Shown here: positions 38,404 through 62,634 of the stretch, piece by piece | How positions within the stretch are numbered: the first letter of the stretch is position 1 | Layout: the number at the start of each line of letters is the position of its first letter | Source of the DNA: Mytilus edulis | Taxonomy: Eukaryota | Assembly (NCBI RefSeq): GCF_963676685.1 | Contig: NC_092355.1 | Coordinates: forward strand, 1,054,001 to 1,118,000 | Length of the DNA stretch: 64,000 bases | Direction of reading: 5' to 3' | The notes under the pieces: model-generated | What the model was told of the DNA's origin: nothing | The model's input: the letters and a program-made list of their open reading frames with translations, nothing else | Database searches by the model: none | Program-made: the position numbers and the translations under genes

Positions 38404-39153
38404 TGCTTACTTTAATGCTCGAGTTTACATTACTTTCCAGCAGGACTCACTGCTTACTTTAATGCTCGAGTTTACATTACTTTCCAGCAGGACTCACTGC
38501 TTACTTTAATGCTCGAGTTTATATTACTTTCCAGCAGGACTCACTGCTTTCTTTAATGCTCGAGTTTATATTACTTTCCAGCAGGACTCACTGCTTACTT
38601 TAATGCTCGAGTTTACATTACTTTCCAGCAGGACTCACTGCTTACTTTAATGCTCGAGTTTATATTACTTTCCAGCAGGACTCACTGCTCACTGTAATGC
38701 TCGAGTTTATATTACTTTCCAGCAGGACTCACTGCTTACTTTAATGCTCGAGTTTACATTACTTTCCAGCAGGACTCACTGCTTACTTTAATGCTCGAGT
38801 TTACATTACTTTCCAGCAGGACTCACTGCTTACTTTAATGCTCGAGTTTACATTACTTTCCAGCAGGACTCACTGCTTACTTTAATGCTCGAGTTTACAT
38901 TACTTTCCAGCAGGACTCACTGCTTACTTTAATGCTCGAGTTTACATTACTTTCCAGCAGGACTCACTGCTTACTTTAATGCTCGAGTTTACATTACTTT
39001 CCAGCAGGACTCACTGCTTACTTTAATGCTCGAGTTTACATTACTTTCCAGCAGGACTCACTGCTTACTTTAATGCTCGAGTTTACATTACTTTCCAGCA
39101 GGACTCACTGCTTACTTTAATGCTCGAGTTTACATTACCTTCCAGCAGGACTC
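38404..39153. repeat. 47-bp minisatellite, ~16 copies
   Basis: Unit TGCTTACTTTAATGCTCGAGTTTACATTACTTTCCAGCAGGACTCAC. Confidence 0.97.
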
Positions 39154-39216
39154 TTTCGACACTGCGTAAATATGAACCTTTATCTAAAAAAAATGTTACA
39201 CCTTCAAATATGAGTA

Positions 39217-39413
39217 CTGTGGATTCATTTACTTTCGTGGGTACCAATTTTCGTGGATTCAGAAAAACTTGCATATTCATGGATATTTAATTTCGTGGTT
39301 TTGCTGAAGTCTGCATACAAACCTATAGAAAAATTATCATTCGTTGAATATTTAATTTCGTGCCCACGAAATCCACGAAAATTGGTATCGAACGAATTAT
39401 AATGAATCCACAG
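39217..39413. mobile_element. TA-target MITE
   Basis: TA-CTGTGGATTCATT...AATGAATCCACAG-TA with internal TTTCGTGG/CCACGAAA repeats. Confidence 0.85.
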
Positions 39414-44638: not shown

Positions 44639-47574
44639 ATTACCAGGAACATACACTAATTATAAATGTAAGGTTTTTTACTATTTATTAGTACAAACGT
44701 CTGTATGATGATCACCTACATGACCATCAATTATAATTTGAGACACCAAAATCGTGTTTAATATCATCTGGTATCACGGGGTTATATTGACGTGCAAATA
44801 AAAATATAATTAATATAACCTCCACACCGATGTAAACAGGACAAACTAAAACAAAACTAAAAAAGTTCACTCGTTTCAGACATAAACAGATTAAAAAAAG
44901 ATGAATAATGAAAATATTGAATCCATTCGAATATAAGATAAACGTCTCGTGTATATTATAGTGTAGACGACATCTAATTAACTATAGTGTTTATCTTCGT
45001 GCGATTTTATTAGGTATGTTATCATTCATGTTAGTGACGAAAAATATATGTTACTTATCGTTTTTAATTGTATAAGAATTATTTGTTTTGGATCGAATCA
45101 GGCAATCTAATAATCTTTTTATTTTGTTCCACTTTCAATGTTAAAACTCGTTTCATGTTAGACATGTAACACTGATGCGTAGTTCGTCTCAAGCGAAAGG
45201 ATAACATTGAAGGTAACATGAATATAAATTCAACTAGGTTGAATCATTCACTTGTTGCATCAACGATTTTTCTTATCTTATTTCAACAAAATTGACCGCA
45301 CTGGCGTTGTTAAAAGCGAAAAATCATTTAGTGTTTCACTAATAATAATGATTGAATACAAATGAATAGATATCTTGTAGCCGGTGCCCATCTGATTATG
45401 TAAACAAACTTATCAGTAATGCCAGTTTTATAATTTTGGTATGCTAAACGGACATTTTGTCTACATCAGACTAAACATAACTGCTTGTATCAATACCTAG
45501 TCAAATACAATGACGTTAAAGAGCATAATACATGTATTAATACACAAATCGTTTCAAATACTAGTACACCCGAAACAGCGTATACATTATAAAATGTATC
45601 TTTACATAGATCCTGCTGACTGAATTCCTTTTATTCCTTTTTTCCACAAGGTGACATATCAGTATAAACTTGTCTATTTATTACGTTAGAGAAATCTATA
45701 TGATAGAGATAAATGGTGTCATATCTTTATTTGTGTCATGGGAGTTTCTATTTCAGATAACTTTGTTATATTTTCATTATGTGATGAGCAATATACTAGA
45801 TATCAGTGTTTTGAATTTCGAAGGAAACTTTGACACTTAGTACAGATTAAAAACACTTTACAAAAACACTTTATGAATGTGTACTCATAATGTTCAACTT
45901 ATAAACAAATCTCTTAAGTACCCAGCTTTTTTCTTAGATTTAATTGAATAACCCGACATCTTAGAATGAATACAAATAATATTAACACAAACAGACATAA
46001 TACATACATTTGATTTTGGATAAAATTGAGAATGAAAATGAAAAATATGTCAAAGAGACAGCAACCTAGTCAAAAAGAAGAAAACGATCGGAAACCATTT
46101 TTGAGTCCTTAACACAGCATGGAAATATCGCACCATCAGGCTTGCTTCAGCTGGTCCCTTAACCCAATTGTGTACTAGTTTAGATAAATGAACGTCATAA
46201 AAAACCGAAATATATATATGAACTAAAATCAAAAATCAGACAAACAAAGGTCAGAGACTGTACAGAAACATTGTTTTTATTATAAGACTGTTCGTTTTAC
46301 AATGTTTTATTGTTTGAAGTTATAAAGTTAAAAATTAACACTTAATACTAAAACATGATAAAATCGTCCAAATATTTTCATCGATTAAAAATGCGAATTC
46401 AGAACAAAATTCTAATTTGGGGAAACACCAAATATCGATGTATTTTTTCTTTTTTGGGGTTGCGTTATAAAAGATGAAAAAGTACATGCAACAACAACAG
46501 CATGATGATAATTATATAAAAATAGGCAGATAGCGGCAAAACAGCAGTCAAATTTATTATTCAATGTAAAGCACTACAACCTGAAAATGTGAACCCCTCC
46601 AAGAACTGACAGTGATTGCATGTGCTTTAGAGAAAAATCAGATCCTTCACCACATGTTACGCACCTCTTTTGCTTATGGTATCACACTCTTAGAGATGAT
46701 TCTATTCGGTAGGTTGCTTACGAGAAATAGAACTGTTTTGGTTTTTGATTTTTTGTATTTTTATTTTTGAAAATACGTAAAGACACACAGAATGTCTACC
46801 ACAGCAAAATACATACTTATTTAAACGATAGAATTTAAACATCCATTACAGAACTTGTCTTAACATTGGTATTTACCTAGATTCATCTTTTTTTTAATTT
46901 TTTCGTATCGGCTAACATATCATCAACTTTACCAACTTAATTATCAGTAAAGATTTTCTAGCAAATTTGTACTTATACTACAAGACATTAATTGAGCTGT
47001 CGTTTGAAGTAAGAAACAAGAAAAGTTCCCCATGACACATAACATCATTAACAATTACAGTTCATCAAAGGGGAAAATATATATTTACTTAGATGATTCT
47101 GTAGCGGGTCAATTGGCGAAAAGGGCAGAAACACATACACCGAAAACTTTGGATATAAAATCCCGAAGTATTAAACTAAAACCTCTGGCAACACCCTTAC
47201 AATGAACTGAAAGAAGGGGTTCTTGATACTGACAGCAAACAATTCATATTTAAAGTTGCAAATACTTTATTTCTGACAAAAGTATATATATATAGCATAA
47301 CAATAACATAACAGTGGCATATATTTGAGATCACAATTTTAGTCAAGCTCAAGACCAATAAGAAAAACAACTTGCAAATTTATCAATAATAAGTACACCT
47401 TTAAGTGAATTTCCAGACAACTATTGCCTAGGGTATCTTTTCAAAGGTTGATCAAAAATACTAAAACTACTCATAAAGAGTATAACTACTGTAACATTAA
47501 CTGCTATGATGTTCTCTCGTTTGTTGAGAATAAGAGCAGATATGGACAAAAATATTATATGTACTCATGTATCC

Positions 47575-47737
47575 AAGTACATCTGACCTCACAGAACAAA
47601 ATAATGGGTATTTATGTATTAAAAGTACATCTGACCTCACAGAACAAAATAATGGGTATTTATGTATTAAAAGTACATCTGACCTCACAGAACAAAATAA
47701 TGGGTATTTATGTATTAAAAGTACATCTGACCTCACG
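47575..47737. repeat. 48-bp tandem repeat (~3.4 copies) inside the LTR; also at 58386-58548
   Basis: Unit AAGTACATCTGACCTCACAGAACAAAATAATGGGTATTTATGTATTAA. Confidence 0.9.
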
Positions 47738-48783
47738 CTAATTATACTGGGACATAAATCATGAAAATGAATATTATAATTGTAAGAACTAGAATTTTGC
47801 TTAAACAGTGTAATTGCTTCCACAGGCTAACACTATAGTCTAGATTTCCAAACTTGGTTATTACAAAGTTTACTTATGGGCAATTATGCGACTTATTGAA
47901 AGCTTTTAATGATGGCAAGAATTTAGTAGAGACTTTGTATTAGCTTCCTTTTACTAAAAACGTAAGTCTCACAATTATGATAGAGTTTAGCAAAGACTTT
48001 GTATTAGCTTCCTTTTACTAAAAACGTAAGTCTCATGTTCCCCTGACCTTTATTCTTAACAGTGAACTTTAGTGAAGTTAAAATCAAGAACTATAATTTT
48101 ATTGCAATAATGTTTGTTGAGACATTGTTTTAGTATCCTTTGGCTAAAAACGATTGTCTCAAAAGTGATCAGAAGAAAATGACAAGATATGGCAAGTAGT
48201 ACAATCATCTATTTTACTAACAATGTTCCTTTAAAGTTTTGACTGACTATACATGTATAGATATTTGATTACAAAATGATGACTTGTATTATTGTACAAA
48301 ATGATTGGCTAACTGTTTTAGTCTTTTAACCAAAAATATGGAAGATTTGTACTAGTTTCCTTCACTAGTAATGTGTATTTCTATGTTTATCTCATTGTCT
48401 GAAAACCCTATTAGAACCCTTAATTGTGCAAAAGACTTAAATTTACTGAATCACCCTTTATAAGTGACATGAAAATTCTATATAAGTATTGTCAAAATTG
48501 TTCCGTTAAGTTACATGAAAACTTCAGACAGTGATTCGGCAAAAAGTATTATTAACGTACGAAATTTCTCATCAGAAAAATATGTATACGTAAATTCTAT
48601 GGTTTATGTATTGTAATTCAATTTAAACCATTATTATTAAACAATGACAAATTCTCATAATTTTCCTAGATTCCTCAAGTTTTCCGTGAAATTTTGGTAA
48701 AATATTTGCGTAAATCGTTTTTAAACAATTATGTGCACTTTAAAATGTTAAAAACTTTACAAAAAGTAAAGTAAATCTATTAT

Positions 48784-48962
48784 TCTTACTTTCAAAAGAA
48801 TATCTCCTTATTATTTTATCAACGTCTTAGCCAGAATGACGTCAGACTCGCGTTTTGGGGTTTTATACTTGTACTTAAAAATTGTGCAAGTTTTGTGCAT
48901 TTTCCGTGCAGTTTCTGTGCGATTTTCTACCGCGCAACTGCAAGATTGGACAGTAAACCAAT
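48784..48962 (-). promoter_or_regulatory. LTR core promoter: CCAAT motifs, TATAAAA at -30, Inr TCATTC (+1 = 48837) overlapping a CRE palindrome, splice donor GTAAGA at +49
   Basis: TATAAAA begins at 48867, exactly 30 nt upstream of the A of TCATTC. TGACGTCA at 48837-48844. CCAAT motifs near 48945-48962. Confidence 0.6.
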
Positions 48963-49670
48963 GGAAATCATTTGCGGCATTTCTCACTTCGGCCGTTATG
49001 AAATGTTTATATTTATTAAATAGATATACAAAAATCATTCTCAGCGACTTTATATTTGCTAAAATGTTTGTTCCGTAAATAGAATATAATAATAAAATTT
49101 CTTTCGATTGAGCTAAAAATACTCGTGACCTTCCGTAATCGTTCGACCAATGAAAACGCTTCATTACCGTTAACTGAAGATGGCGCTGAAAGGAAGCCAG
49201 GTGCTTGTCTGTCAACGAATTTCGACAAGTTATGTAGTTAAACAAAATGTTCTGACATAAAACTTGTAATTCCCTATACCGAAATGACTTGAGGAAACTG
49301 TACAGATAAGTAAGTTCACATGACACAATCAAAAAATGTACATACGAGTAAAAACAACACTCGGTTCAATGAAAGTAAATAAATACGGGGATCGTCTCAT
49401 AACAGTAAATAACAGATTCCATAGTAAACAGTAGATACAATATTCTATAATAAAATGACTGCATTATAACCTATTCTGCCAGTTATTAGTTATTTGAATC
49501 TGAATAAAAATTATAGAAATAATCCTGAAAAGGGAATGCACTGATTCTATCTTTGTCTCTGAATAAGTAGAGTGAAATTTAGAATTGAACAGCATACAAT
49601 TATACACATTTGAAGTTTTAAGAAAAGTAGTTATTATAAGTACAATTGATAAATGGTACCCGTCACATTA

Positions 49671-49680
49671 CCCCCCTTTT
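49671..49680 (-). other. Polypurine tract of copy 1
   Basis: AAAAGGGGGG, then TAA, immediately before the TG of the 3' LTR. Repeated at 60482-60491. Confidence 0.9.
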
Positions 49681-49973
49681 AGAATTTGTGTCCCTACAAA
49701 TTGGTTATGATAATCAATAAATAAAAGAATTTGAAAACCATAAGAACAATATGATATAATGGTACTAAATGTACACGTAAAGTTTTCTCCAATTTGAATT
49801 TCATAAAACAAAAAAATCAATTACTACCAGACTTTTTGTTTGAATTTAAAAACCAATTTTTCTATATTTACTCTATCCTAAATATATTCAATTAAATACC
49901 TAATTATATAAATAATCATTATTCATGTACAAACAAAATCACAAGAAAGAAAAATATATAACACAAATACAGT

Positions 49974-51059
49974 TCAGGTTCTTTTGGTATATCTTGGCAT
50001 GGGTGTAATACTCCTTCTTTGGGCTGGCCGGTAAGGAGAATATCTGTTCCTGTTGTAGTGACGGGCTGGAGAGGCATTCCTTTGTCTGTTCTCTGTGTTT
50101 TGACCTCGAACTACAGACCGTAGTCCGGTCACCTGACTAGTCAGTCGTACAATTTCCTTCTGCATGTTTTCCATGTTAGTTGTCATAGTACTGGTAAAGT
50201 TTGTAAATTTTTTTGTTAGTTCCTCCAACAAAACCTTATGGGAGCATGTGCTTGAAGATGATGATGATGATGATGAAGAGGATGAAGATTTTCTTTCAGA
50301 ATTATTTGTTGGAACCATGTTCCATTCTTCAGCTGGATGTGTGTTTGTGGTGATGGTAGTAGTTGTCTGCTCGAACACAAACTCGTCTGGCTGTGACTGT
50401 TGCTCTTCCTCCAGCTCTTCCAGTTCTCTTTCGCGGGCTATGATTTTCCTTATAGGGGAGGAGAGTGGTGTACCCACTGGTTCAGGTCTTTCCTCCACCA
50501 CTTCTGCTTCCTGCACTACATCTACCACTATTTCCTCCACCACTTCTGCTTCCTGCACTACATCTACCACGATTTCCTCCACCACTTCTGCTTGCTGAAC
50601 AACGTCTACCACTTCTGCTTCCTGCACTACTTCAACCCGACATACTGCCTCAGCTGGTTGTACCACAGGAGTTGGACCAAATGTTGGAGTATATCCTCTG
50701 GTCCTTATCAACGATTCACCGCGGGTCATCTTCTCTAGGTCTAAACCTATTACGGATCGGTATGGTAAGGGACTCTTTTTGATATATGCTCGGTCTCCCT
50801 GGTACTGACCCCTATTGATCATCTCTTCCTTCTGTATCTGGTGGGGTCGGAAGTACTGGCCATGCTTTATCATCTCGCTTTCCTTGCCACATCGGAAAAG
50901 GCATAAGGTGCAATAATATGGCACTACTTCTAAAGGCACATGTAGTTTCCAGATGTGGCCTTCAACACGGTGTTTTTGACCAATGTAACCATCTTGGTCA
51001 ATACATTTGAGGCAGCGATATAACCTTCGGATTTGTTTGTTGTTTAGATTGTCTGACAT
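49974..51059 (-). CDS. ORF3: 361-aa protein with two C2H2-like zinc fingers, acidic Val/Glu repeats, poly-Ser, coiled-coil-like segment and Arg-rich C-terminus
   Basis: C-x2-C-x15-H-x4-H and C-x2-C-x12-H-x6-H. ATG at 51059 follows the acceptor TTTTTATTGCAG|A. A long open frame within AT-rich flanks. Confidence 0.85.
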   Translation of the reverse strand: MSDNLNNKQIRRLYRCLKCIDQDGYIGQKHRVEGHIWKLHVPLEVVPYYCTLCLFRCGKESEMIKHGQYFRPHQIQKEEMINRGQYQGDRAYIKKSPLPYRSVIGLDLEKMTRGESLIRTRGYTPTFGPTPVVQPAEAVCRVEVVQEAEVVDVVQQAEVVEEIVVDVVQEAEVVEEIVVDVVQEAEVVEERPEPVGTPLSSPIRKIIARERELEELEEEQQSQPDEFVFEQTTTTITTNTHPAEEWNMVPTNNSERKSSSSSSSSSSSSSTCSHKVLLEELTKKFTNFTSTMTTNMENMQKEIVRLTSQVTGLRSVVRGQNTENRQRNASPARHYNRNRYSPYRPAQRRSITPMPRYTKRT

Positions 51060-51823
51060 TCTGCAATAAAAATAAAAATATAAAGTATGTTGCCAGTGGC
51101 ATTGCACTTTATAAAGAGCTAGACCAAAACATATAAGGTTCCAACTTTGGTTCCTTCTGTTAAGGTTGAAGTTTTTCCTACATTGATAATTTATTTATTT
51201 TATAAGTATGTTAAAATTCAGCATAGCACAGCATTATTTTTATTTGGTACCACACGACTTTACAAAATAAAACAAATTGTACTAAATCTTGCCACTTATT
51301 GTCATTTTTACCTAAATTCTTAATACACCCCATTTATGTTAAGGCCTGAGAGATTATTATATTAAACGCATTTCCGTTTTGTGACAGCAACTCAAAGACA
51401 GAAAACAAATTATTAAATGACAAATTAGGAAGTATCCTAGCGTTTATTTTATTTTTACAAAGGCTGGTATTAACACACTAATTCAAATAGTGTGTACATA
51501 ACTATATACAAAGAAAAACTAAGTACCTAATGTTCCCAAATTATATTATTGGGAGACTATCCTTAACAAAAAAAAAAACATCATTTAATCCTACATTCAA
51601 TTAAAACTAAAAGATTAACTTGAGTACAATCTTGAGCTTGACTATTCCTTATCACATTTAAATTTTATGTACAACTTTATCAGTTTATTTACATTTGGAA
51701 AGAAACATTTTGAAAACATACAAAATGTACACACATAAAAAGAAACAATCATGTAAAATACTTGATCAATACAAGTATAAACATATAACTTATGTCGTAC
51801 ATGTACATGTATAGCATTTAATA

Positions 51824-54800
51824 TCATTTATTCTGAGTTTCAACTTGTTTAATCCATTTTTGGGTGCTAGTCCCTTTATATGGCTTTAGTTTGTTATGGT
51901 TGACCACTTTTTTGGTTCCTTTTGCATCTATCTGTATTTGATAATTTAGGTCATTGTATCTGTTTACTATCAGACATGGACCCAAAAATAAAGGTTGTAA
52001 CTTGAAACAACTTCCTTCTCTCCTTGTTTCGTTTAGGTACCACACTTTGTCAAACTTTTGGTATTGGACAAGGTTGGCTTTGACATCATAGTGATCTTTT
52101 CTTTTTCTAAGGTTAACTTCCAAATGTTTTCTGGCTACTTGATGGGCTTTCTGTAATCTCTCTCGTACTTTAAGCGCATGGTTTCCCCATGTTCCCTGTT
52201 CAGTTTCTGAAACAAATTCTGTTCCTTCTCTAGTTAGCTCATAGGGAAAACGAATTTCTCTGCCTAACATCATTACATTGGGAGTTAAACTAGTCGTATC
52301 ATGTGGACAAGCTCTATATGCACTCGCAAGGCATCCAAGATTAAGATCCCAGTTCGTCTGCTCTCCTCTCAAATAAGATTTTATCATAGAAACCAAAGTT
52401 CTGTTAAAACGTTCAACTTGACCATTGCACTTTGGATTACGGGGGCTTGTCCTTGTCTTGCGTATATCTAATATACTACACAATTCTTGGAAAATGTCGC
52501 TTTCGTAATTCCGACCTTGATCAGAATGTATGGCCAAAGGGAAACCAAAACGACAAATTACATCATTCAAGATAATATTAGCGCATGTTGTAGCTGTTTG
52601 GTCAGGAACTGGAAATACTTCAACCCATTTAGTAAAGTAATCCGTAACTGTTAAGATGTACCGATTATTCCTGGGAGTAAGCGGCAATGGCCCAAGGAGA
52701 TCAGTTGCAAGTCTGTCGAGGGGCCCTCCAACTGGCATTTTTCCCAACGGAGCCCTCAATAATTTTTGAGGAGGTTTGTTGGCCCCACAAATGTCACATT
52801 GGCTTATCCAAATTTGTATGTCTTCTTTCATCTCGTACCAGTAATACCGTTGACCTAATTTTTCCTTTGTTTTGTTTTTGCCTAGATGTCCTGACAAAAT
52901 TGAGTTGTGCATGTTATTTAGTACTTCCTTTTTCATCTTGTCTGGAACTAAGAATTGTCTGTAGTCTCCTGAACCATCTCTTCGGCTGTACTGCTTAAAC
53001 AGCAGACCATCTTTCTTAACAACTGATTCCCATAGGTGCCAGTAGTGTCTGGTAGCAGCACTGTATTTTTCTAATTCTTTTGAATTAGGTCGAGTGTCAC
53101 CTTCCTTCCACTGTAAGAGAGGTCCGATATCTGAGTCATCTTCCTGTAGTTTTAATAATTCTTCTTTTGAGTGTCCATTACTCCATGTTGTCCATATATT
53201 ATCATCTGAAGTCTGTTGTCTTGTTTTTACTGCACAAATCTGTATAGGTTCTCCACCATCTTTGTTTTTAGTTGGATCTTCAATATTTTCCTCATGGATT
53301 TCTGGCGATAGCAATCTTGTACTCTGCATTTCTATGGCACGATTTCGACACTTCTTACAGGGACCACATTTTAGGTACTCCAAATTGTCTACATCCGCAC
53401 ACTCACAATCTTTTGGATTATAACATCTAGACAAAGCATCAGCATTCCCATGTTTACTACCGGGGCGATATTCAATGGAGAAATCGAAATTGGATAGAAT
53501 TTCTAACCATCTAGCTATTCGACCTTTAGGCTCTTTCATGCTAAAAAGCCATATCAATGCCTGGTGATCAGTACGTACACAGAATTTACGTCCTAGCAGA
53601 TACTGCCTGTAGTATTCAATAAAGTAGCGTACTGCTAAAAGCTCTTTGTCCGTTATACAGTAGTTGCGCTCTGCCTTATTAAGGGTACGACTACCATAGG
53701 CTATAACTTTCAATGTACCATCCTGTATCTGACTTAACACTGCTCCAATAGCTGTGTCACATGCATCTGTGTCCAAATAGTATTCACCTTCATCTCTGGG
53801 AAAAGCCATAATATCTGTACTAGTGAAAGCTTGTTTTAGTTTCTCAAAAGCAATTTGGCATTCCTTTGTCCACTCAAATGACTTAGATTTCTTGGTCAGG
53901 TCAGTTAAGGGTTTTACCATGGCTGACAAGTCCTTAATAAAACGTCTGTAGTAGCTACCCATGCCTAAAAGTTGTCGTACTTCAGTGACGGTTGTTGGTA
54001 CAGGCCAAGATAAAATTTTTGCTGTATTGTCCGGATTTGGACGAATTCCTTCATCCGAAACCACATGACCTAGAAAAGTGACCTCTGACTTCAGGAGTTC
54101 ACATTTCTCTGGTTTTAATTTCAACCCCGATTCCAAAATTCTGTTTAAAACTGTATCTAGCCTTGACATGTGTTCTTCGAAACCGTTACTAAATACAATG
54201 ATATCGTCTAGATAAATTAGACAAATTTGCCATTGAAGCCCATGAAGTACAAGTTCCATCAATCGTTGACAAGTAGCTGGACCATTGCAGACTCCAAATG
54301 GCATCGTCTTGAACTCATACAGACCATATTTGGTTACGAATGCTGTCTTGGAAATATCATCTTTCTTCATGGGAATTTGGTGATATCCACTGGTCAAATC
54401 GAAGGTCGACATCAAGGTGGCGCCACCTACGGCATCCAGACAGTCTTGTATTCTCGGAATAGGAAATGAGTCCAGCCGAGTAAGGGCGTTCAAAAATCTG
54501 TAGTCACAGCACGGGCGAATCTTCCCGTTTTTCTTGACCACTAGCTGTAATGGACTTCCCCAAGGTGAATTTGACTTTTGTATGATCCCTTGATCTAACA
54601 TTTGTGTTATGGCTTTCCTCTCGTCATTGGCAAAAGCAAGTGGAACTCTTCGTGGTGGTTGTTTAACTGGCTTGGCTTCACCGGTGTCAATTGTATGTTC
54701 CACTAGGTGTGTCAGCCCTAGGTCTGTATCATTTACTGAAAATGCTGCCGAATATTTTTGCAAAAGACTAACTATAGCCTCCTGTTCATCTTCTGGACGG

Positions 54801-56107
54801 TTGTTCGCTGCATCATCATATAAAGAACGTAAATGTGTAGGTACGACTCCACTTTTCCCTCCGTCAGTTGTTCCTTTATTTGCTAGACTTCTTATTATTC
54901 CCTCATTTGTCTGCCATGTGACAGGTTTGGAACCTGTTAATTTTATTCGTCGGACAGAGTTGAAGTTCTGTGACTCCTCACTGTCTTCCTGTGAAAATAG
55001 CGTAATTGGATCAGTATTTAATTTTTCTGCAATTCCAATAACTGCATCTTGATTCAGCTTTACCTCTTGATCAAAAGGATTCATGAGTCTGACCTTATTA
55101 GTCACTTCTTCTCCAATTTCAACAAGACAGGCGGCCATTACTAATGGATAGGTATCTTCAAATTGTGGGCAAGGTTCTATTAAGTAGTCTTGTGGACAGT
55201 TGTGTAAATCTTTGTCGAAACGGTCAACAAAAACATCAATAAGTATCTCACTTCTTGGCTGTATGACATAATGATCAGCTGATCTAACTTTTCTTATTGG
55301 TTCCGTCTGTCCAACTTGGATACATGGGATAGTGGTACTATTAAGCAAGATAACTCCTTCTGTTAATTTTATATCAGCTGGGCCTTGATCTCCTTTCATT
55401 AGGATATCTAAACCTAAGAGAGCTTCATCTTCTATCTCAGCAACTATGAGTTCCTTTTCTAAGGCCAACTCACCCAGTGTCAAGTTAAAAACAGCTTTTC
55501 CTAACTCTTTCAATGGTTGTCCGTCAGCACTAGCCAAAGAACTAGATTTTTGAAGTTTTGGTCTTTTTGATGAAAGTATTTTTCTGAATGTTTTAGTCGA
55601 AATAACAGTTCGTGTAGCTCCAGTATCAGCAGTAAATGTAACATCAATTCCTTCAATACTTCCTTGGATATATACTCCTTCACATCTCAAAACTTGTCTT
55701 CCAATAATATGAGTTTCAACTGGTGGAAATCTTTGAACATCATCTAGGCCTTCAGACGATTTCATCGATACTTCCGCAGTACAAGTGCCAGCAGGACTAT
55801 CACCTCTATGCAAGGGTGAATACTCAACCTCCTGTTCACTCTTGTGACTCAGTGGAGGACTATCACCTCTAATCAAGGGTGAATGCTCAACCTCCTCATT
55901 TATTCTTACTGGTTTCAAAACATGACAACTATCAATATCAATTTTATCTAGACCCCCCTTTTTTGTACTTAAACTTTTATTCTCAGAAATTAAACTGCTA
56001 TTTTGACCTTTAACATCATTCAAATTTTGACCTTTAACATCATTCAAATTTTGACCTTTAACATCTAAAACTGTATGGGTCACCTCCCGGTCATCAGAGA
56101 TGCCCAC
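51824..56107 (-). CDS. pol: Pol polyprotein: aspartic protease, reverse transcriptase, RNase H, integrase; reached by -1 frameshift
   Basis: ADTGA (PR), YLDD (RT), DTDAC..KELLAV..TDH (RH), H-H-C-C and D,D,E (DLLGP/SDQG/VER) integrase, GPY/F-like LFLGPC. Uninterrupted 1427-codon frame; no chromodomain. Confidence 0.97.
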   Translation of the reverse strand: MGISDDREVTHTVLDVKGQNLNDVKGQNLNDVKGQNSSLISENKSLSTKKGGLDKIDIDSCHVLKPVRINEEVEHSPLIRGDSPPLSHKSEQEVEYSPLHRGDSPAGTCTAEVSMKSSEGLDDVQRFPPVETHIIGRQVLRCEGVYIQGSIEGIDVTFTADTGATRTVISTKTFRKILSSKRPKLQKSSSLASADGQPLKELGKAVFNLTLGELALEKELIVAEIEDEALLGLDILMKGDQGPADIKLTEGVILLNSTTIPCIQVGQTEPIRKVRSADHYVIQPRSEILIDVFVDRFDKDLHNCPQDYLIEPCPQFEDTYPLVMAACLVEIGEEVTNKVRLMNPFDQEVKLNQDAVIGIAEKLNTDPITLFSQEDSEESQNFNSVRRIKLTGSKPVTWQTNEGIIRSLANKGTTDGGKSGVVPTHLRSLYDDAANNRPEDEQEAIVSLLQKYSAAFSVNDTDLGLTHLVEHTIDTGEAKPVKQPPRRVPLAFANDERKAITQMLDQGIIQKSNSPWGSPLQLVVKKNGKIRPCCDYRFLNALTRLDSFPIPRIQDCLDAVGGATLMSTFDLTSGYHQIPMKKDDISKTAFVTKYGLYEFKTMPFGVCNGPATCQRLMELVLHGLQWQICLIYLDDIIVFSNGFEEHMSRLDTVLNRILESGLKLKPEKCELLKSEVTFLGHVVSDEGIRPNPDNTAKILSWPVPTTVTEVRQLLGMGSYYRRFIKDLSAMVKPLTDLTKKSKSFEWTKECQIAFEKLKQAFTSTDIMAFPRDEGEYYLDTDACDTAIGAVLSQIQDGTLKVIAYGSRTLNKAERNYCITDKELLAVRYFIEYYRQYLLGRKFCVRTDHQALIWLFSMKEPKGRIARWLEILSNFDFSIEYRPGSKHGNADALSRCYNPKDCECADVDNLEYLKCGPCKKCRNRAIEMQSTRLLSPEIHEENIEDPTKNKDGGEPIQICAVKTRQQTSDDNIWTTWSNGHSKEELLKLQEDDSDIGPLLQWKEGDTRPNSKELEKYSAATRHYWHLWESVVKKDGLLFKQYSRRDGSGDYRQFLVPDKMKKEVLNNMHNSILSGHLGKNKTKEKLGQRYYWYEMKEDIQIWISQCDICGANKPPQKLLRAPLGKMPVGGPLDRLATDLLGPLPLTPRNNRYILTVTDYFTKWVEVFPVPDQTATTCANIILNDVICRFGFPLAIHSDQGRNYESDIFQELCSILDIRKTRTSPRNPKCNGQVERFNRTLVSMIKSYLRGEQTNWDLNLGCLASAYRACPHDTTSLTPNVMMLGREIRFPYELTREGTEFVSETEQGTWGNHALKVRERLQKAHQVARKHLEVNLRKRKDHYDVKANLVQYQKFDKVWYLNETRREGSCFKLQPLFLGPCLIVNRYNDLNYQIQIDAKGTKKVVNHNKLKPYKGTSTQKWIKQVETQNK

Positions 56108-56119
56108 CCTTAGTTTAAT
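56076..56119 (-). promoter_or_regulatory. Putative -1 ribosomal frameshift signal
   Basis: A-UUA-AAC directly before the gag UAA, a 6-nt spacer, then hairpin UGGG-CAUCUC...GAGGUG-A-CCCA. pol is in the -1 frame with ~11 codons of overlap. Confidence 0.7.
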
Positions 56120-57819
56120 GGAAAGCCTGGTGGTGGTACCCCCATATTAGGGTTGGGACCAAGGTTACCGTTATTTTGTCCCCATTGTGGTTTAAAGTTA
56201 TTGTTTTTTGAAGGAAATCTGTCTGCAACTCTATCTGGATTTGCGAAACAATTTCTCGCAAAATGTCCCGGTTGTCCACAGTAATAGCATAATCCATTCT
56301 GTCTTGGACCCTTATGTTGGCCATCATTGGATTGAAATGGAGTCTGACTGGTTCCTGGTCTACCATATGTCTTATGCTGTAATTCTTGCTTTTTGTCTTC
56401 AAACATCTTGTTAAATAAAGATTGCAAATCCCCTTCTTTAATAGTTAGACTTTTATTTTTGTCTTCAATCTGGCTTTCAACAGACGTTTTCTCCGCTCCC
56501 TGGTAATTGTCGGACTTTTTGTCATTATCCTTTCTAGTAATGTTTTCATTCTTTTGTCCTCCTTTCACTTGTCGTACTGCCTTCTTATTATTTTCTTCTC
56601 CTTGATTCGGATTTTTCATGGTCTCTACGTATGTAATGACTTCTTGTACTGCTTCTTCTATGGTTTCAGGATCTTTGTTTAATTCTATATGAATACGGGC
56701 CTTATAATCTATGAGTCCCAAGAGAAATCTCTGTAGTAGATCTTCTTGGCGTGTACTTGCATATCTGTTTTTGTAGGCTTTGTCATATAGCCTTTTTAAC
56801 TCTGCTGCAAATTTTTCTGGTGTCTCTCCGTTTAACTGTTTTCTTCTACTAAATTGAAGCCGGTATGTTCTGGTGGTCTCTATGACTCCAAATCTATTTT
56901 TTAGATCTTGTACCAACTTTTTGTAGTTCCTGATAGTCTTCTTTGGCAATTGATCAAACGTGAAGTCTCCAGCGTCTCCTTGTAACCTGGGTAACAACTC
57001 TTGAAGTCTATCTTCCTCATTCCAAGATTTAAGTTTTGCAACTGCTTCGAATCGATTGAACCAGACCTCCCACTTCTCTTGACCAGTAAAAGATGGAAGC
57101 TTGACATTATGTGAACTTGACTTCTGTTTTGACTGTGTTATTCTATTGGTAGATACACTACAATCAGAATCCACAGGTTCATGGCAATCTTCCTCTGAGC
57201 TGGAATCACTGGAGTAACTACTCTGTATGCTTGACTTTCTAGTTGTCTTACATGTTGAGGTACTTTTTACATGTCTTGGTTTTCTCCTATGTGGTGGTTC
57301 TGTATTTGATTTGATAGTATCTGTACTGGATGGTTGAGCGATAACATTGCTACTAAAAGCAGCTTGTATCGCAAAAATAACCTGGGTAGTCATATCTTGT
57401 ATGGCATTCTTAAGTGTACCATAAATGCCGGTATGTTCATTGGGTGACAGAGGACGTGTCTCCTGCACCAAATTTTCTTTCTGAGGACGTGTCTCTTGCA
57501 CCAAATTTTCTTTCTGTAATTTATTACTCTTTTGTCTCTTGTTGTATAACCTCGAACTTCGTCGTAAATCTAAAGTCTGAAAATTCTTTTGTATCCCACT
57601 AGTACTTGGTGTACTCTGTGGTAAATTCCTGGTGTTTGTAACCATAGTCTGTTCAGCTTGCTCGATTTCTGAGTCGGACAGATCGGTATAGCCAGTAGCC
57701 TCTGTCTCTGTAGTATCATTCTGTCCGGTCTGATAATCATCAGTGTCGTCTGTAATGATTTCTCTTCCACTTTCATCTCCACTACCTACTGGTGGTATAT
57801 GTGTTCTTTTTTTCACCAT
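56110..57819 (-). CDS. gag: Gag polyprotein (569 aa from first ATG), capsid-like domain plus CCHC zinc knuckle
   Basis: Motifs VKLPSFTGQEKWEVWFNRFE and CYYCGQPGHFARNC. First ATG at 57819; the ORF track starts at an upstream GTG. Confidence 0.93.
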   Translation of the reverse strand: MVKKRTHIPPVGSGDESGREIITDDTDDYQTGQNDTTETEATGYTDLSDSEIEQAEQTMVTNTRNLPQSTPSTSGIQKNFQTLDLRRSSRLYNKRQKSNKLQKENLVQETRPQKENLVQETRPLSPNEHTGIYGTLKNAIQDMTTQVIFAIQAAFSSNVIAQPSSTDTIKSNTEPPHRRKPRHVKSTSTCKTTRKSSIQSSYSSDSSSEEDCHEPVDSDCSVSTNRITQSKQKSSSHNVKLPSFTGQEKWEVWFNRFEAVAKLKSWNEEDRLQELLPRLQGDAGDFTFDQLPKKTIRNYKKLVQDLKNRFGVIETTRTYRLQFSRRKQLNGETPEKFAAELKRLYDKAYKNRYASTRQEDLLQRFLLGLIDYKARIHIELNKDPETIEEAVQEVITYVETMKNPNQGEENNKKAVRQVKGGQKNENITRKDNDKKSDNYQGAEKTSVESQIEDKNKSLTIKEGDLQSLFNKMFEDKKQELQHKTYGRPGTSQTPFQSNDGQHKGPRQNGLCYYCGQPGHFARNCFANPDRVADRFPSKNNNFKPQWGQNNGNLGPNPNMGVPPPGFPLN

Positions 57820-57883
57820 TACTGCTACTGCTCGTACTACCACTTAAAGGGTACGTATCACTAGATCCACTCAATAAATGAAT

Positions 57884-57903
57884 GAATCCCACCGAGGATG
57901 CCA
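57884..57903 (-). other. Primer binding site (TGGCATCCTCGGTGGGATTC), tRNA-Leu-like and imperfect
   Basis: TGG-initiated motif 7 nt downstream of the LTR end. CGGTGGGATTC is complementary to the 3' region of tRNA-Leu(AAG/UAG) as I recall it. Confidence 0.7.
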
Positions 57904-57910
57904 GAAAATA

Positions 57911-60478
57911 TGTAGCGGGTCAATTGGCGAAAAGGGCAGAAACACATACACCGAAAACTTTGGATATAAAATCCCGAAGTATTAAACTAAAACCTCTGGC
58001 AACACCCTTACAATGAACTGAAAGAAGGGGTTCTTGATACTGACAGCAAACAATTCATATTTAAAGTTGCAAATACTTTATTTCTGACAAAAGTATATAT
58101 ATATAGCATAACAATAACATAACAGTGGCATATATTTGAGATCACAATTTTAGTCAAGCTCAAGACCAATAAGAAAAACAACTTGCAAATTTATCAATAA
58201 TAAGTACACCTTTAAGTGAATTTCCAGACAACTATTGCCTAGGGTATCTTTTCAAAGGTTGATCAAAAATACTAAAACTACTCATAAAGAGTATAACTAC
58301 TGTAACATTAACTGCTATGATGTTCTCTCGTTTGTTGAGAATAAGAGCAGATATGGACAAAAATATTATATGTACTCATGTATCCAAGTACATCTGACCT
58401 CACAGAACAAAATAATGGGTATTTATGTATTAAAAGTACATCTGACCTCACAGAACAAAATAATGGGTATTTATGTATTAAAAGTACATCTGACCTCACA
58501 GAACAAAATAATGGGTATTTATGTATTAAAAGTACATCTGACCTCACGCTAATTATACTGGGACATAAATCATGAAAATGAATATTATAATTGTAAGAAC
58601 TAGAATTTTGCTTAAACAGTGTAATTGCTTCCACAGGCTAACACTATAGTCTAGATTTCCAAACTTGGTTATTACAAAGTTTACTTATGGGCAATTATGC
58701 GACTTATTGAAAGCTTTTAATGATGGCAAGAATTTAGTAGAGACTTTGTATTAGCTTCCTTTTACTAAAAACGTAAGTCTCACAATTATGATAGAGTTTA
58801 GCAAAGACTTTGTATTAGCTTCCTTTTACTAAAAACGTAAGTCTCATGTTCCCCTGACCTTTATTCTTAACAGTGAACTTTAGTGAAGTTAAAATCAAGA
58901 ACTATAATTTTATTGCAATAATGTTTGTTGAGACATTGTTTTAGTATCCTTTGGCTAAAAACGATTGTCTCAAAAGTGACCAGAAGAAAATGACAAGATA
59001 TGGCAAGTAGTACAATCATCTATTTTACTAACAATGTTCCTTTAAAGTTTTGACTGACTATACATGTATAGATATTTGATTACAAAATGATGACTTGTAT
59101 TATTGTACAAAATGATTGGCTAACTGTTTTAGTCTTTTAACCAAAAATATGGAAGATTTGTACTAGTTTCCTTCACTAGTAATGTGTATTTCTATGTTTA
59201 TCTCATTGTCTGAAAACCCTATTAGAACCCTTAATTGTGCAAAAGACTTAAATTTACTGAATCACCCTTTATAAGTGACATGAAAATTCTATATAAGTAT
59301 TGTCAAAATTGTTCCGTTAAGTTACATGAAAACTTCAGACAGTGATTCGGCAAAAAGTATTATTAACGTACGAAATTTCTCATCAGAAAAATATGTATAC
59401 GTAAATTCTATGGTTTATGTATTGTAATTCAATTTAAACCATTATTATTAAACAATGACAAATTCTCATAATTTTCCTAGATTCCTCAAGTTTTCCGTGA
59501 AATTTTGGTAAAATATTTGCGTAAATCGTTTTTAAACAATTATGTGCACTTTAAAATGTTAAAAACTTTACAAAAAGTAAAGTAAATCTATTATTCTTAC
59601 TTTCAAAAGAATATCTCCTTATTATTTTATCAACGTCTTAGCCAGAATGACGTCAGACTCGCGTTTTGGGGTTTTGTACTTGTACTTAAAAATTGTGCAA
59701 GTTTTGTGCATTTTCCGTGCAGTTTCTGTGCGATTTTCTACCGCGCAACTGCAAGATTGGACAGTAAACCAATGGAAATCATTTGCGGCATTTCTCACTT
59801 CGGCCGTTATGAAATGTTTATATTTATTAAATAGATATACAAAAATCATTCTCAGCGACTTTATATTTGCTAAAATGTTTGTTCCGTAAATAGAATATAA
59901 TAATAAAATTTCTTTCGATTGAGCTAAAAATACTCGTGACCTTCCGTAATCGTTCGACCAATGAAAACGCTTCATTACCGTTAACTGAAGATGGCGCTGA
60001 AAGGAAGCCAGGTGCTTGTCTGTCAACGAATTTCGACAAGTTATGTAGTTAAACAAAATGTTCTGACATAAAACTTGTAATTCCCTATACCGAAATGACT
60101 TGAGGAAACTGTACAGATAAGTAAGTTCACATGACACAATCAAAAAATGTACATACGAGTAAAAACAACACTCGGTTCAATGAAAGTAAATAAATACGGG
60201 GATCGTCTCATAACAGTAAATAACAGATTCCATAGTAAACAGTAGATACAATATTCTATAATAAAATGACTGCATTATAACCTATTCTGCCAGTTATTAG
60301 TTATTTGAATCTGAATAAAAATTATAGAAATAATCCTGAAAAGGGAATGCACTGATTCTATCTTTGTCTCTGAATAAGTAGAGTGAACTTTAGAATTGAA
60401 CAGCATACAATTATACACATTTGAAGTTTTAAGAAAAGTAGTTATTATAAGTACAATTGATAAATGGTACCCGTCACA
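57911..60478 (-). repeat. Shared LTR: 5' LTR of copy 1 and 3' LTR of copy 2
   Basis: Flanked by the copy 1 PBS on one side and the copy 2 PPT on the other. I found only 3 substitutions versus 47100-49667 by eye. Confidence 0.95.
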
Positions 60479-60784
60479 TTACCCCCCTTTTAGAATTTGT
60501 GTCCCTACAAATTGGTTATGATAATCAATAAATAAAAGAATTTGAAAACCATAAGAACAATATGATATAATGGTACTAAATGTACACGTAAAGTTTTCTC
60601 CAATTTGAATTTCATAAAACAAAAAAATCAATTACTACCAGACTTTTTGTTTGAATTTAAAAACCAATTTTTCTATATTTACTCTATCCTAAATATATTC
60701 AATTAAATACCTAATTATATAAATAATCATTATTCATGTACAAACAAAATCACAAGAAAGAAAAATATATAACACAAATACAGT

Positions 60785-61870
60785 TCAGGTTCTTTTGGTA
60801 TATCTTGGCATGGGTGTAATACTCCTTCTTTGGGCTGGCCGGTAAGGAGAATATCTGTTCCTGTTGTAGTGACGGGCTGGAGAGGCATTCCTTTGTCTGT
60901 TCTCTGTGTTTTGACCTCGAACTACAGACCGTAGTCCGGTCACCTGACTAGTCAGTCGTACAATTTCCTTCTGCATGTTTTCCATGTTAGTTGTCATAGT
61001 ACTGGTAAAGTTTGTAAATTTTTTTGTTAGTTCCTCCAACAAAACCTTATGGGAGCATGTGCTTGAAGATGATGATGATGATGATGAAGAGGATGAAGAT
61101 TTTCTTTCAGAATTATTTGTTGGAACCATGTTCCATTCTTCAGCTGGATGTGTGTTTGTGGTGATGGTAGTAGTTGTCTGCTCGAACACAAACTCGTCTG
61201 GCTGTGACTGTTGCTCTTCCTCCAGCTCTTCCAGTTCTCTTTCGCGGGCTATGATTTTCCTTATAGGGGAGGAGAGTGGTGTACCCACTGGTTCAGGTCT
61301 TTCCTCCACCACTTCTGCTTCCTGCACTACATCTACCACTATTTCCTCCACCACTTCTGCTTCCTGCACTACATCTACCACGATTTCCTCCACCACTTCT
61401 GCTTGCTGAACAACGTCTACCACTTCTGCTTCCTGCACTACTTCAACCCGACATACTGCCTCAGCTGGTTGTACCACAGGAGTTGGACCAAATGTTGGAG
61501 TATATCCTCTGGTCCTTATCAACGATTCACCGCGGGTCATCTTCTCTAGGTCTAAACCTATTACGGATCGGTATGGTAAGGGACTCTTTTTGATATATGC
61601 TCGGTCTCCCTGGTACTGACCCCTATTGATCATCTCTTCCTTCTGTATCTGGTGGGGTCGGAAGTACTGGCCATGCTTTATCATCTCGCTTTCCTTGCCA
61701 CATCGGAAAAGGCATAAGGTGCAATAATATGGCACTACTTCTAAAGGCACATGTAGTTTCCAGATGTGGCCTTCAACACGGTGTTTTTGACCAATGTAAC
61801 CATCTTGGTCAATACATTTGAGGCAGCGATATAACCTTCGGATTTGTTTGTTGTTTAGATTGTCTGACAT
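60785..61870 (-). CDS. ORF3 of copy 2 (same translation as copy 1)
   Basis: Identical translation to 49974-51059, with the same splice acceptor upstream. Confidence 0.85.
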   Translation of the reverse strand: MSDNLNNKQIRRLYRCLKCIDQDGYIGQKHRVEGHIWKLHVPLEVVPYYCTLCLFRCGKESEMIKHGQYFRPHQIQKEEMINRGQYQGDRAYIKKSPLPYRSVIGLDLEKMTRGESLIRTRGYTPTFGPTPVVQPAEAVCRVEVVQEAEVVDVVQQAEVVEEIVVDVVQEAEVVEEIVVDVVQEAEVVEERPEPVGTPLSSPIRKIIARERELEELEEEQQSQPDEFVFEQTTTTITTNTHPAEEWNMVPTNNSERKSSSSSSSSSSSSSTCSHKVLLEELTKKFTNFTSTMTTNMENMQKEIVRLTSQVTGLRSVVRGQNTENRQRNASPARHYNRNRYSPYRPAQRRSITPMPRYTKRT

Positions 61871-62634
61871 TCTGCAATAAAAATAAAAATATAAAGTATG
61901 TTGCCAGTGGCATTGCACTTTATAAAGAGCTAGACCAAAACATATAAGGTTCCAACTTTGGTTCCTTCTGTTAAGGTTGAAGTTTTTCCTACATTGATAA
62001 TTTATTTATTTTATAAGTATGTTAAAATTCAGCATAGCACAGCATTATTTTTATTTGGTACCACACGACTTTACAAAATAAAACAAATTGTACTAAATCT
62101 TGCCACTTATTGTCATTTTTACCTAAATTCTTAATACACCCCATTTATGTTAAGGCCTGAGAGATTATTATATTAAACGCAGTTCCGTTTTGTGACAGCA
62201 ACTCAAAGACAGAAAACAAATTATTAAATGACAAATTAGGAAGTATCCTAGCGTTTATTTTATTTTTACAAAGGCTGGTATTAACACACTAATTCAAATA
62301 GTGTGTACATAACTATATACAAAGAAAAACTAAGTACCTAATGTTCCCAAATTATATTATTGGGAGACTATCCTTAACAAAAAAAACAACATCATTTAAT
62401 CCTACATTCAATTAAAACTAAAAGATTAACTTGAGTACAATCTTGAGCTTGACTATTCCTTATCACATTTAAATTTTATGTACAACTTTATCAGTTTATT
62501 TACATTTGGAAAGAAACATTTTGAAAACATACAAAATGTACACACATAAAAAGAAACAATCATGTAAAATACTTGATCAATACAAGTATAAACATATAAC
62601 TTATGTCGTACATGTACATGTATAGCATTTAATA

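Follow-up and report, generated by a model that had tools for sequence, protein, structure and literature searches.

A Gypsy retrotransposon of the mussel Mytilus edulis carries, between pol and its 3' LTR, a gene for a zinc-finger protein, and the question raised by this locus is what a gene of that kind in the env position could do for the element. According to PMC10309623, most ORFs in this position are without an assigned function, and the nuclear export of genomic RNA and the evasion of silencing have been solved for very few LTR elements. A first-pass annotation of the window, by which we mean the whole stretch of 64,000 nucleotides that was analysed, C12:1054001-1118000, had described a 361-aa sense-strand ORF between pol and the polypurine tract, beginning one nucleotide after a splice acceptor. 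The ORF is present as described. Hereafter called ORF3, it occupies with its stop codon positions 51059-49974 of the minus strand (the sense strand of the element), begins 764 nt after the pol stop and ends about 300 nt before the polypurine tract; an identical second copy is located 10811 bp upstream at 61870-60785 (-). The element around it consists of the following parts.

47096..47099, minus strand: 4-bp target-site duplication, with its partner beyond the window
47100..49667, minus strand: 3' LTR of 2568 bp, TG...CA
49671..49680 (copy 60482-60491), minus strand: polypurine tract
51824..56146, minus strand: pol frame of 1440 aa, protease-RT-RNase H-integrase, in the -1 frame relative to gag (Pfam)
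56110..57819, minus strand: gag of 569 aa, with PNMA-like capsid region and CCHC knuckle (Pfam)
57886..57903, minus strand: primer-binding site of 18 nt, complementary to the 3' end of tRNA-Arg(TCT)
57911..60478, minus strand: middle LTR, common to both tandem units

By all features tested the element is a Gypsy element. Pfam places protease, followed by RT, RNase H and lastly integrase, in pol, with the capsid-like region and CCHC knuckle of gag upstream, and finds no chromodomain in the integrase; the LTRs bounded by TG...CA, the tRNA primer site, the polypurine tract and the target-site duplication are those of Ty3/Gypsy (Metaviridae). Its LTRs (2568 bp) are 99.9% identical to one another, and the element carrying ORF3 is intact and young. 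Inside the 4-bp duplication the locus is built as LTR-internal-LTR-internal-LTR; its end, near 71289, is past the window. Duplications of 4 bp also flank two further close copies of the element. It probably belongs to one of the RT-defined mollusc Gypsy clades (MolGy1-16, C-clade and AB-clade) named in PMC6238403; these clades are defined by RT/RNase H, and the words 'ORF' and 'zinc' are absent from the main text of that paper.

The protein encoded by ORF3 is divided as follows.

49974..51059, minus strand: ORF3, 361 aa, with double Cys2His2 domain, acidic/Ser-Thr linker, long helix and Arg-rich tail
60785..61870, minus strand: second copy of ORF3 in the upstream tandem unit, identical in sequence
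50685..51059, minus strand: residues 1-125, conserved compact domain (alignment; model pLDDT 92, pTM 0.80)
51014-50940, minus strand: finger 1 ligands C16, C19, H35 and H40, within residues 1-125
50912-50841, minus strand: finger 2 ligands C50, C53, H66 and H73, within residues 1-125
50489..50613, minus strand: 42-nt tandem repeat, 3.0 copies, coding the acidic Val/Glu repeats
50079..50240, minus strand: residues 274-327, a single long predicted helix, coiled-coil-like (pLDDT about 90 over 281-320)
49977..50078, minus strand: residues 328-361, Arg/Ser/Pro-rich basic tail

The two C2H2-like fingers have the spacings that had been claimed for them, C16-x2-C19-x15-H35-x4-H40 and C50-x2-C53-x12-H66-x6-H73, and the acidic repeats, the poly-Ser stretch, the heptad-like segment and the Arg/Ser/Pro-rich tail could all be confirmed. 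In the structure model of residues 1-125 (pLDDT 92, pTM 0.80) both fingers and a C-terminal extension are packed as one domain; beyond it the full-length model shows disorder, a helix at 202-220 and the long helix at 274-327, with a mostly disordered middle and no second globular domain. Charge is unevenly distributed, with 19 D/E against 2 K/R in the linker (residues 126-200), and 9 K/R and zero D/E among the 34 residues of the tail. The 42-nt repeat varies in copy number among copies of the element, being longer in the copy at C12:1.95 Mb and shortened by a 15-nt in-frame deletion in sequencing runs X1 and X3.

This layout recurs in other members of the family. Among 149 homologues examined, 66 are full-length-like; a heptad score of at least 6 is found in 46 of these 66, and in 45 of those 46 the heptad-rich helix lies in the final 130 residues, a heptad pattern that by sequence is indistinguishable from an export signal. 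When residues 262-330 of ORF3 were predicted as a two-copy complex, the score was 0.31 against a mark of 0.32. The Arg fraction is 0.147 in the tails of the 66 homologues versus 0.038 in their middle parts. The motif R-x-PY, which we take to be import-signal-like, occurs in 10 of the 66 tails (2.7 expected), and as it is present in just these 10 it is not a family-wide motif of ORF3.

One candidate for a gene in this position is Env, and it was rejected. The hydropathy of ORF3 in a 19-residue window reaches a maximum of 1.27, neither a membrane segment nor a signal peptide-like stretch is seen in the protein sequence, the model consists of fingers, disorder and helix, and a membrane-like segment occurs in one of the 66 full-length-like homologues, all of which bears out the earlier view that ORF3 is not Env. 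Errantivirus env and the sORF2 fusogens of the MDG1 group are, like ORF3, accessory genes of Gypsy elements, and env is spliced to a 3' ORF; they are, however, membrane proteins for cell-to-cell spread, whereas ORF3 is without a membrane segment (PMC13524379, PMC11952523). Errantiviruses are recognized by a membrane fusion glycoprotein as third ORF, with signal peptide, membrane anchor and an F or gB fold; ORF3 is not such a protein, and therefore the element is not an errantivirus.

Is ORF3 then a gene of the element, or a piece of host sequence that one copy happened to acquire? Within the M. edulis genome, 101 candidates turned up with residues 1-120 as query, and 47 of them match. Ten diverged loci were inspected in full: in seven, gag or pol is directly upstream of the ORF3 domain, in most cases together with an LTR pair; another has pol alone, and nearby pol is absent from the remaining two. 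An integrase end lies within 1.5 kb in 16 of the best 30 loci, and the 14 from which it is absent look like fragments. Sampling in the converse direction covered 40 of 150 listed integrase matches (from 1886 candidates) and 18 earlier stretches, and a pol tree of 39 elements was built from rows of this genome by a quick, midpoint-rooted method that omits the 19 of 58 stretches lacking a long RT or integrase match. In this tree the ORF3 domain follows integrase in 7/7 elements of the window's pol clade (support 100) and in 5/5 elements of a second clade (support 100), and matches of the ORF3 profile downstream of integrase reach RT identities as low as 50%. A third gene is present in 31 of the 39 elements, if remnants and third ORFs of another zinc-finger type or of TatD type are included; neighbouring clades carry different zinc-finger ORF3s, one of which is fused to a TatD nuclease. 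Among diverged families identity is 25-42% for ORF3 versus 50-76% for RT. ORF3 is thus a gene of the clade, inherited with pol, and not the oddity of one element. The initial description of a single element was sound as to the reality of ORF3 but too narrow, for ORF3 is one type within a wide class of zinc-finger ORF3s in mussel Gypsy clades.

Beyond this genome, 311 protein clusters (at 50% identity) match ORF3 at E 0.001. Across 152 aligned ORF3-type proteins the eight zinc ligands are conserved at 95-99%, and in 146 of them the start of the domain is at most 40 residues away from the N-terminus. Named eukaryotic members among 30 looked-up clusters come from Mytilus, Potamilus, Dreissena and the snail Gigantopelta, the closest named homologues being those of Mytilus edulis and M. 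coruscus. In the 90% protein set one profile search, covering long proteins only, yielded 0 proteins and another yielded 4. No relative was found among viral contigs, and scans of metagenomes and prokaryotes located 0, 4 and 1 loci; two of these five (L135 and L136) have integrase followed by a broken finger region, the other three are without pol, and it is in these two metagenome contigs only that genomic context outside Mytilus was seen.

Selection was measured as dN/dS, chosen beforehand as a test, and it is far below 1. In nine comparisons with the window copy it is 0.02-0.25 for residues 1-125 and, for the same nine copies, 0.19-0.31 for residues 196-361, the comparisons not being independent since the window copy is common to all. 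For ORF3 pairs within two further families the values are about 0.14-0.5, from few changes, and in run X1 seven of the eight listed ORF3 differences are silent; between diverged families dS is saturated. ORF3 is under purifying selection. With its ligands conserved at 95-99%, this shows that ORF3 is not a chance ORF, and that explanation was rejected.

A passively carried recent host exon, or an envelope-like fusogen, could be suspected from the 14 loci without a nearby integrase end and from some database gene models in which the ORF3 domain is joined to host domains. It is nevertheless a very improbable explanation and largely refuted, as the domain keeps the same position even between clades with an RT identity of only 50%, dN/dS is low, no host family is matched in Pfam, and a membrane-like segment is confined to the single homologue already mentioned. 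The recent host exon was accordingly rejected, and homologues between pol and LTR in diverged families uphold the view of the first-pass annotation that the gene is element-encoded. ORF3 represents a real and conserved accessory gene family with a putative function.

How ORF3 would be expressed is indicated by its splice signals.

51061..51085, minus strand: ORF3 splice acceptor, with pyrimidine tract and AG at 51062-51061
61872..61896, minus strand: splice acceptor of the second ORF3
59595..59603, minus strand: candidate splice donor AAA/GTAAGA, with GT at 59600-59599 and a copy at 48789-48788

The acceptor AG is followed by a single A and then by the ATG of ORF3, and in three families besides that of the window the acceptor AG abuts the ORF3 ATG. 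An acceptor is found within 12 nt of a start ATG in 18 of 25 third ORFs (16 of 25 if the first ATG alone is counted), while control ATGs have one in 14/263 and 250/4600 cases, about 5%. The candidate donor lies 78-88 nt past the TATA box in three diverged families whose LTRs are barely alignable, and the donor near 59600 is likely the element's own; the intron from there to 51061 would measure about 8.5 kb.

Four of 24 listed public sequencing runs (X1, X3, X21 and X24) were examined for junctions. Among the runs listed none is on file as RNA, which counts neither way. In run X1, whose RNA status is a guess, a contig leaves the element exactly at the ORF3 acceptor 51061 and continues into at least 255 foreign letters; depth in this run is 50-119 over ORF3 versus 4-20 over gag-pol, and the bin just upstream is at 0. 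The end of the foreign exon matches the end of the LTR of another Gypsy family, followed by GTAAGT in 10 of the 10 genomic places listed, and the pattern of this end has 13 matches versus 0 for the reversed-pattern control; the last 20 nt match, and the full 30-nt end has no match in the M. edulis genome at 2 mismatches. The donor of another element joined exactly to the ORF3 acceptor indicates that the acceptor works, on the evidence of this one contig. The element's own donor-acceptor junction was not seen, the X3 contigs being unspliced through the acceptor and the junction being absent among the few reads of X21 (46) and X24 (3). Of the spliced expression proposed at the outset, the use of the acceptor is therefore borne out and the junction of the element itself is not. 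ORF3 is an element-encoded, selected, non-Env gene with a usable acceptor. Contigs of X1 and X3 also point to spliced antisense transcripts from the LTR.

With strong splice sites on either side of gag and pol, a donor close to the cap and an acceptor past pol, ORF3 mRNA would be the default product, and the problem arises of how the unspliced RNA is exported. In Cer1, a Gypsy element of C. elegans, the export problem set by strong donor and acceptor is solved by the element's own export factor CERV, a nuclear protein whose spliced mRNA uses an ORF in the env position (PMC10309623). In HTLV-1, a stem-loop in the 3' LTR, the RexRE, is used by Rex for export (PMC12789967). On account of the export problem and of the CERV and Rex precedents we tentatively favour the reading of ORF3 as an RNA-binding regulator that would help unspliced genomic RNA to escape splicing and leave the nucleus. 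According to this model, transcription would start in the LTR past the TATA box, and a short non-coding first exon with its donor near 59600 would be spliced over gag and pol to the acceptor, yielding ORF3 mRNA by default. The basic tail would take ORF3 into the nucleus, where the long helix may oligomerise the protein and the compact double finger may bind element RNA, the hairpins of the LTR R region being the candidate site; transcripts so bound would avoid splicing and be exported as full-length genomic and gag-pol RNA. ORF3 would then work like Cer1 CERV or HTLV-1 Rex while being a member of neither family, and its probable role would be to give the element control over its RNA, in the manner of complex retroviruses. 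Weighing against this RNA-binding regulator are the own junction missing from X3, X21 and X24, and the 8 of 39 related elements that are without a trace of ORF3, several of which have long open gag-pol frames.

The LTR offers a promoter, a polyadenylation signal and a possible RNA target.

48861..48867, minus strand: candidate TATA box of the LTR promoter, predicted from a layout common to three diverged families
47266..47271 (copy 58077-58082), minus strand: candidate polyadenylation signal near the LTR end, in like context in three families
59144..59197 (3' LTR 48333-48386), minus strand: hairpin copy 1, in the presumed R region
58922..58976 (3' LTR 48111-48165), minus strand: hairpin copy 2, a weak match (E 0.49)
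58732..58850 (3' LTR 47985-48039 and 47921-47975), minus strand: hairpin copies 3 and 4

The motif TGACGTCA follows the candidate TATA box at about 48844, and a similar motif after the TATA box recurs in three diverged families; the middle LTR differs by one base in the TATA/TGACGTCA area, at 59676. The position of the candidate polyadenylation signal suggests an R region of about 1.6 kb. Three diverged families repeat the hairpin between the candidate donor and the conserved poly(A) signal, and the pattern occurs 1-6 times per LTR versus 0.08-0.17 expected. A covariance model built from 10 copies was run over 804 kb from 93 sources and gave 111 matches. All are on the sense strand, the strand on which the model was built, and at LTR positions of the Arg-primer subclade, LTR limits having been checked for not every broken copy. 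Over 66 distinct rows pairing in the inner helix reaches 97%, both partners have changed at 4 of its 6 pairs, and covariation is 0.278 versus 0.160 when shuffled and at most 0.106 when slid, counts that are inflated because the copies are related. Folding of single copies is moderate, with z from -1.3 to -2.5, and is matched by that of the opposite strand; wobble counts of 35 G-U versus 23 A-C do not fix the strand. The motif was not found in more distant domain-bearing families, which use other primers, and Rfam over 47000-58000 gave one chance match. Confinement of the hairpin to the Arg-primer subclade, with its strand not fixed, counts against the RNA-regulator reading.

The same hairpins might serve Gag or ORF3 as a signal for packaging or dimerisation, and ORF3 could be an accessory of the particle or of integration, serving in hairpin-based RNA packaging or as a chromatin tether or nuclear-entry factor with the pre-integration complex. 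A basic tail and an oligomerising helix would suit a tether, and the integrase is without a chromodomain. We consider this quite improbable, since the spliced RNA would carry the hairpins too, at its 3' end, where a packaging signal would be poorly placed, and a separate spliced mRNA is typical of regulators such as Rev, Rex and Rem (PMC12789967).

Whether the fingers would bind RNA or DNA was approached through known folds and families. Pfam has no family for ORF3, and its matches among 103 members (REST-like 7, ZNF462-like 7, JAZ 6, zf-met 4, zf-C2H2 2) favour neither the RNA- nor the DNA-binding type of finger. Foldseek against the PDB and viral models returned nothing at E 0.001, VIA-align none at Z 5, and the best-matching Atlas clusters are unnamed. 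The structural matches that VIA-align does give are weak (Z 2-3.6), and its top two rows are conventional tandem C2H2 arrays, both of which tell against an RNA regulator. Finger 2, with a long helix and wide His-His spacing (x6), overlays the fingers of TUT1, JAZ, U1/U11 snRNP and tRNA dimethylallyltransferase over 38-40 residues at rmsd 2.1-2.8 and Z 2-3, and in these overlays it is tied with DNA-binding fingers. We take the overlaid fingers to be of the RNA-binding U1/matrin/JAZ type, and these overlays and the long helix of finger 2 were counted for the RNA-binding reading.

Proteins that activate transcription from the LTR are known, foamy-virus Tas being an example. A DNA-binding LTR transactivator, with its fingers on LTR DNA (maybe on the inverted-repeat motif as a dimer) and its acidic linker as the activating part, is a rather unlikely reading of ORF3. 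C2H2 fingers are usually DNA-binding, the best PDB sequence matches are fingers of CTCF, Ikaros and MBP-1 (E 5e-4 to 1e-3), the linker is strongly acidic, the repeated LTR motif, as an inverted repeat, would be readable by a dimer, and finger 1 has conserved basic residues (K/R29, R31 and K38). ORF3 is, however, not a classical Krueppel-type C2H2 array, its spacings being x15/x4 and x12/x6 and the canonical linker being absent, and against DNA-binding arrays the finger pair as a unit has a TM-score of at most 0.31 with no overlay. Classical fingers contact bases through certain helix positions, and in finger 2 of the 152 aligned proteins these vary and are often acidic. The both-side changes of the LTR motif, moreover, preserve pairing and not sequence, and the motif lies 400-900 nt past the presumed start.

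Another reading, which we regard as unlikely, is that of an anti-silencing factor that would bind dsRNA, hairpin RNA or element chromatin and shield the element against piRNA or siRNA. It is in keeping with the weak resemblance between finger 2 and the JAZ finger, which binds dsRNA, with the antisense LTR transcripts suggested by X1 and X3 as a source of dsRNA, with the fast divergence of ORF3 relative to RT, which fits conflict, and with sister clades in which the fingers are joined to other modules, including the TatD nuclease. Purifying selection throughout all comparisons speaks against it, and structure searches found no enzyme or known silencing-suppressor fold in ORF3.

Returning to the RNA-binding regulator, its nearest precedents differ from ORF3 in build. 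Both CERV and ORF3 are encoded by an ORF that follows pol and precedes the 3' LTR, but the function of CERV was shown by mutants whereas that of ORF3 is inferred; CERV has 517 aa and exons in common with gag, while ORF3 has 361 aa and its own ATG directly after the acceptor. CERV has H, M (C4 loop) and G-protein-like domains and ORF3 two Cys2His2 fingers, a distinction drawn by description and not by alignment, and homologues of CERV are confined to nematodes (PMC10309623). Rex/RexRE of HTLV-1, Rem/RmRE of MMTV and Rev/RRE of HIV-1 likewise involve a regulator made from spliced mRNA and having an Arg-rich segment, and with its candidate LTR stem-loop the ORF3 element resembles systems of the Rex/RexRE type, binding and export by ORF3 being predicted (PMC12789967). 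HTLV-1, MMTV and HIV-1 are retroviruses with env, whereas the ORF3 element is without it. Rev, Rex and Rem bind RNA through Arg-rich motifs and are not known to use zinc fingers, and export systems of this kind are further marked by a CRM1-dependent export signal.

Third ORFs other than Env are known from LTR elements of plants. LTR retrotransposons of bdelloid rotifers also have non-Env ORF3s in the env position, typically expressed from spliced messages, and their nuclease-type ORF3 is DEDDy, whereas that of the mussel sister clade is TatD (PMC5408684). The rotifer ORF3s are GDSL esterases, DEDDy exonucleases or membrane proteins, and the words 'zinc' and 'finger' are absent from the main text (PMC5408684). 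In the literature searched, which did not extend to Repbase or most subscription journals, we found no account of mollusc Gypsy elements having a third ORF of the zinc-finger or TatD type, and word searches of the available parts of PMC6238403, PMC8556966, PMC10294476, PMC12440569, PMC13524379, PMC11952523 and PMC2774666 gave no such ORF. The ORF3 family is apparently undescribed, though a Repbase note on such ORFs is possible. As for the 'complex' LTR retrotransposon that had been proposed, complex elements are already known from Cer1 and its CERV (PMC10309623), so that it is not unprecedented, and what stands is that ORF3 matches no family described in Pfam; the zinc-finger ORF3 variant appears to be new.

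A broader reading, possible but doubtful, is that many mollusc Gypsy elements are complex in this sense, with a spliced third gene in which an N-terminal zinc-finger module would serve as the address and the effectors (helix and Arg tail, TatD, others) would be swappable, the fingers in the present subclade reading the hairpin array of the LTR RNA. If this were true, a switch like Rex/RexRE would have evolved independently on zinc fingers, with both the protein and its target visible in sequence. With the family (311 clusters), the splice signals and a candidate RNA target defined, a single small domain and a short RNA are enough to put the question of RNA export and silencing to the test. For annotation there is also a warning, in that pieces of ORF3 enter bivalve gene models as 'C2H2-type domain-containing proteins'.

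Third ORFs with zinc fingers, lying after integrase in the env position, are found in further Gypsy clades besides those that carry ORF3, the 361-aa double Cys2His2 zinc-finger gene between pol and the polypurine tract. These ORFs are on the sense strand, encode 170–580 aa and carry differing C2H2-like fingers at the N-terminus; in many of them a splice acceptor lies immediately 5' of the ATG. Their C-terminal parts are specific to each clade and have no Pfam match. Two of the elements, L122 and L128, are near-identical in RT and integrase, yet L128 has a 570-aa zinc-finger ORF3 of which L122 shows no trace. In a sister Gypsy clade (support 100 in a quick, midpoint-rooted RT/integrase tree of 39 elements) the third ORF has at its C-terminal end a DNase domain related to TatD (E 1e-29 to 1e-39 in Pfam), preceded in some members by zinc-finger-like motifs; in the literature searched, we found no report of TatD in any retrotransposon.

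Third ORFs of other Gypsy elements (L-numbers are individual genomic loci)
L098, L099, L104, L106, L108, L116, L118, L123, L128, L130, L132, sense, 0.6–1.5 kb past integrase: finger third ORFs
L124:1492-3462 (-): TatD third ORF, Pfam
L125:2068-3414 (-): TatD third ORF, Pfam
L127:1686-3653 (-): TatD third ORF, Pfam
L129:4248-5948 (+): TatD third ORF, Pfam

Five ORF3 homologues (P0171, P0174, P0182, P0069, and P0088) are assigned to bacterial bins of Candidatus Thiodiazotropha and Sedimenticola, where the contigs are short, and they probably represent host DNA inside symbiont bins. In the mussel genome, two diverged ORF3 finger regions lie 1.5–2.3 kb apart on the same strand at each of two loci; each pair may be an old element that carries two third genes, or may reflect the nesting of one copy in another.

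Paired ORF3 finger regions
G000:C1:40.978-40.981 Mb, same strand: L007/L026
G000:C1:85.702-85.704 Mb, same strand: L012/L028

The window element itself is a very young tandem array of the order LTR-internal-LTR-internal-LTR, 99.9% identical and enclosed by one 4-bp target duplication, and it probably arose by recombination between LTRs. One contig of run X1, presumably RNA, joins the LTR end to the integrase end and skips 5895 nt, with a short side of only 30 letters; it is possibly a deleted, non-autonomous copy retaining ORF3. Contigs of X1 and of a second run, X3, exit the LTR at an antisense-strand GTAAGT donor, and the two foreign sequences that follow differ from each other; the likely source is antisense transcription from the LTR with splicing into neighbouring host DNA. 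In an unrelated Gypsy family, a strong splice donor precedes the LTR end by about 20 nt in 10 of the 10 places listed. In X1 an exon of this family's LTR is joined to ORF3, and therefore ORF3 can be expressed from another element's promoter.

LTR features
Window 47100 to beyond 64000 (end ~71289): tandem Gypsy array
Window 52017/57913: X1 contig join
Window 60121, copy at 49310 (+): antisense LTR donor GTAAGT, X1 and X3 contigs
L064-L069, L077-L082 (e.g., G000:C1:101447712, C7:74915512): unrelated family, donor near LTR end

Other repeats were also observed. Positions 1-46000 of the window contain segmental repeats of ~10–11 kb that include Tc1/mariner-like transposase remnants, and elsewhere in the genome tRNA-Arg(TCT) genes alternate with tRNA-Lys(TTT) genes in a long tandem array with a period of ~1214 bp.

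Other repeats
Window 11552-12133, 21637-22116: Tc1/mariner-like transposase remnants
Window ~3230-4800: 24-nt satellite
Window ~38260-39310: 47-nt satellite
G000:C4:50.72-50.79 Mb (L087): tRNA-Arg(TCT)/tRNA-Lys(TTT) array
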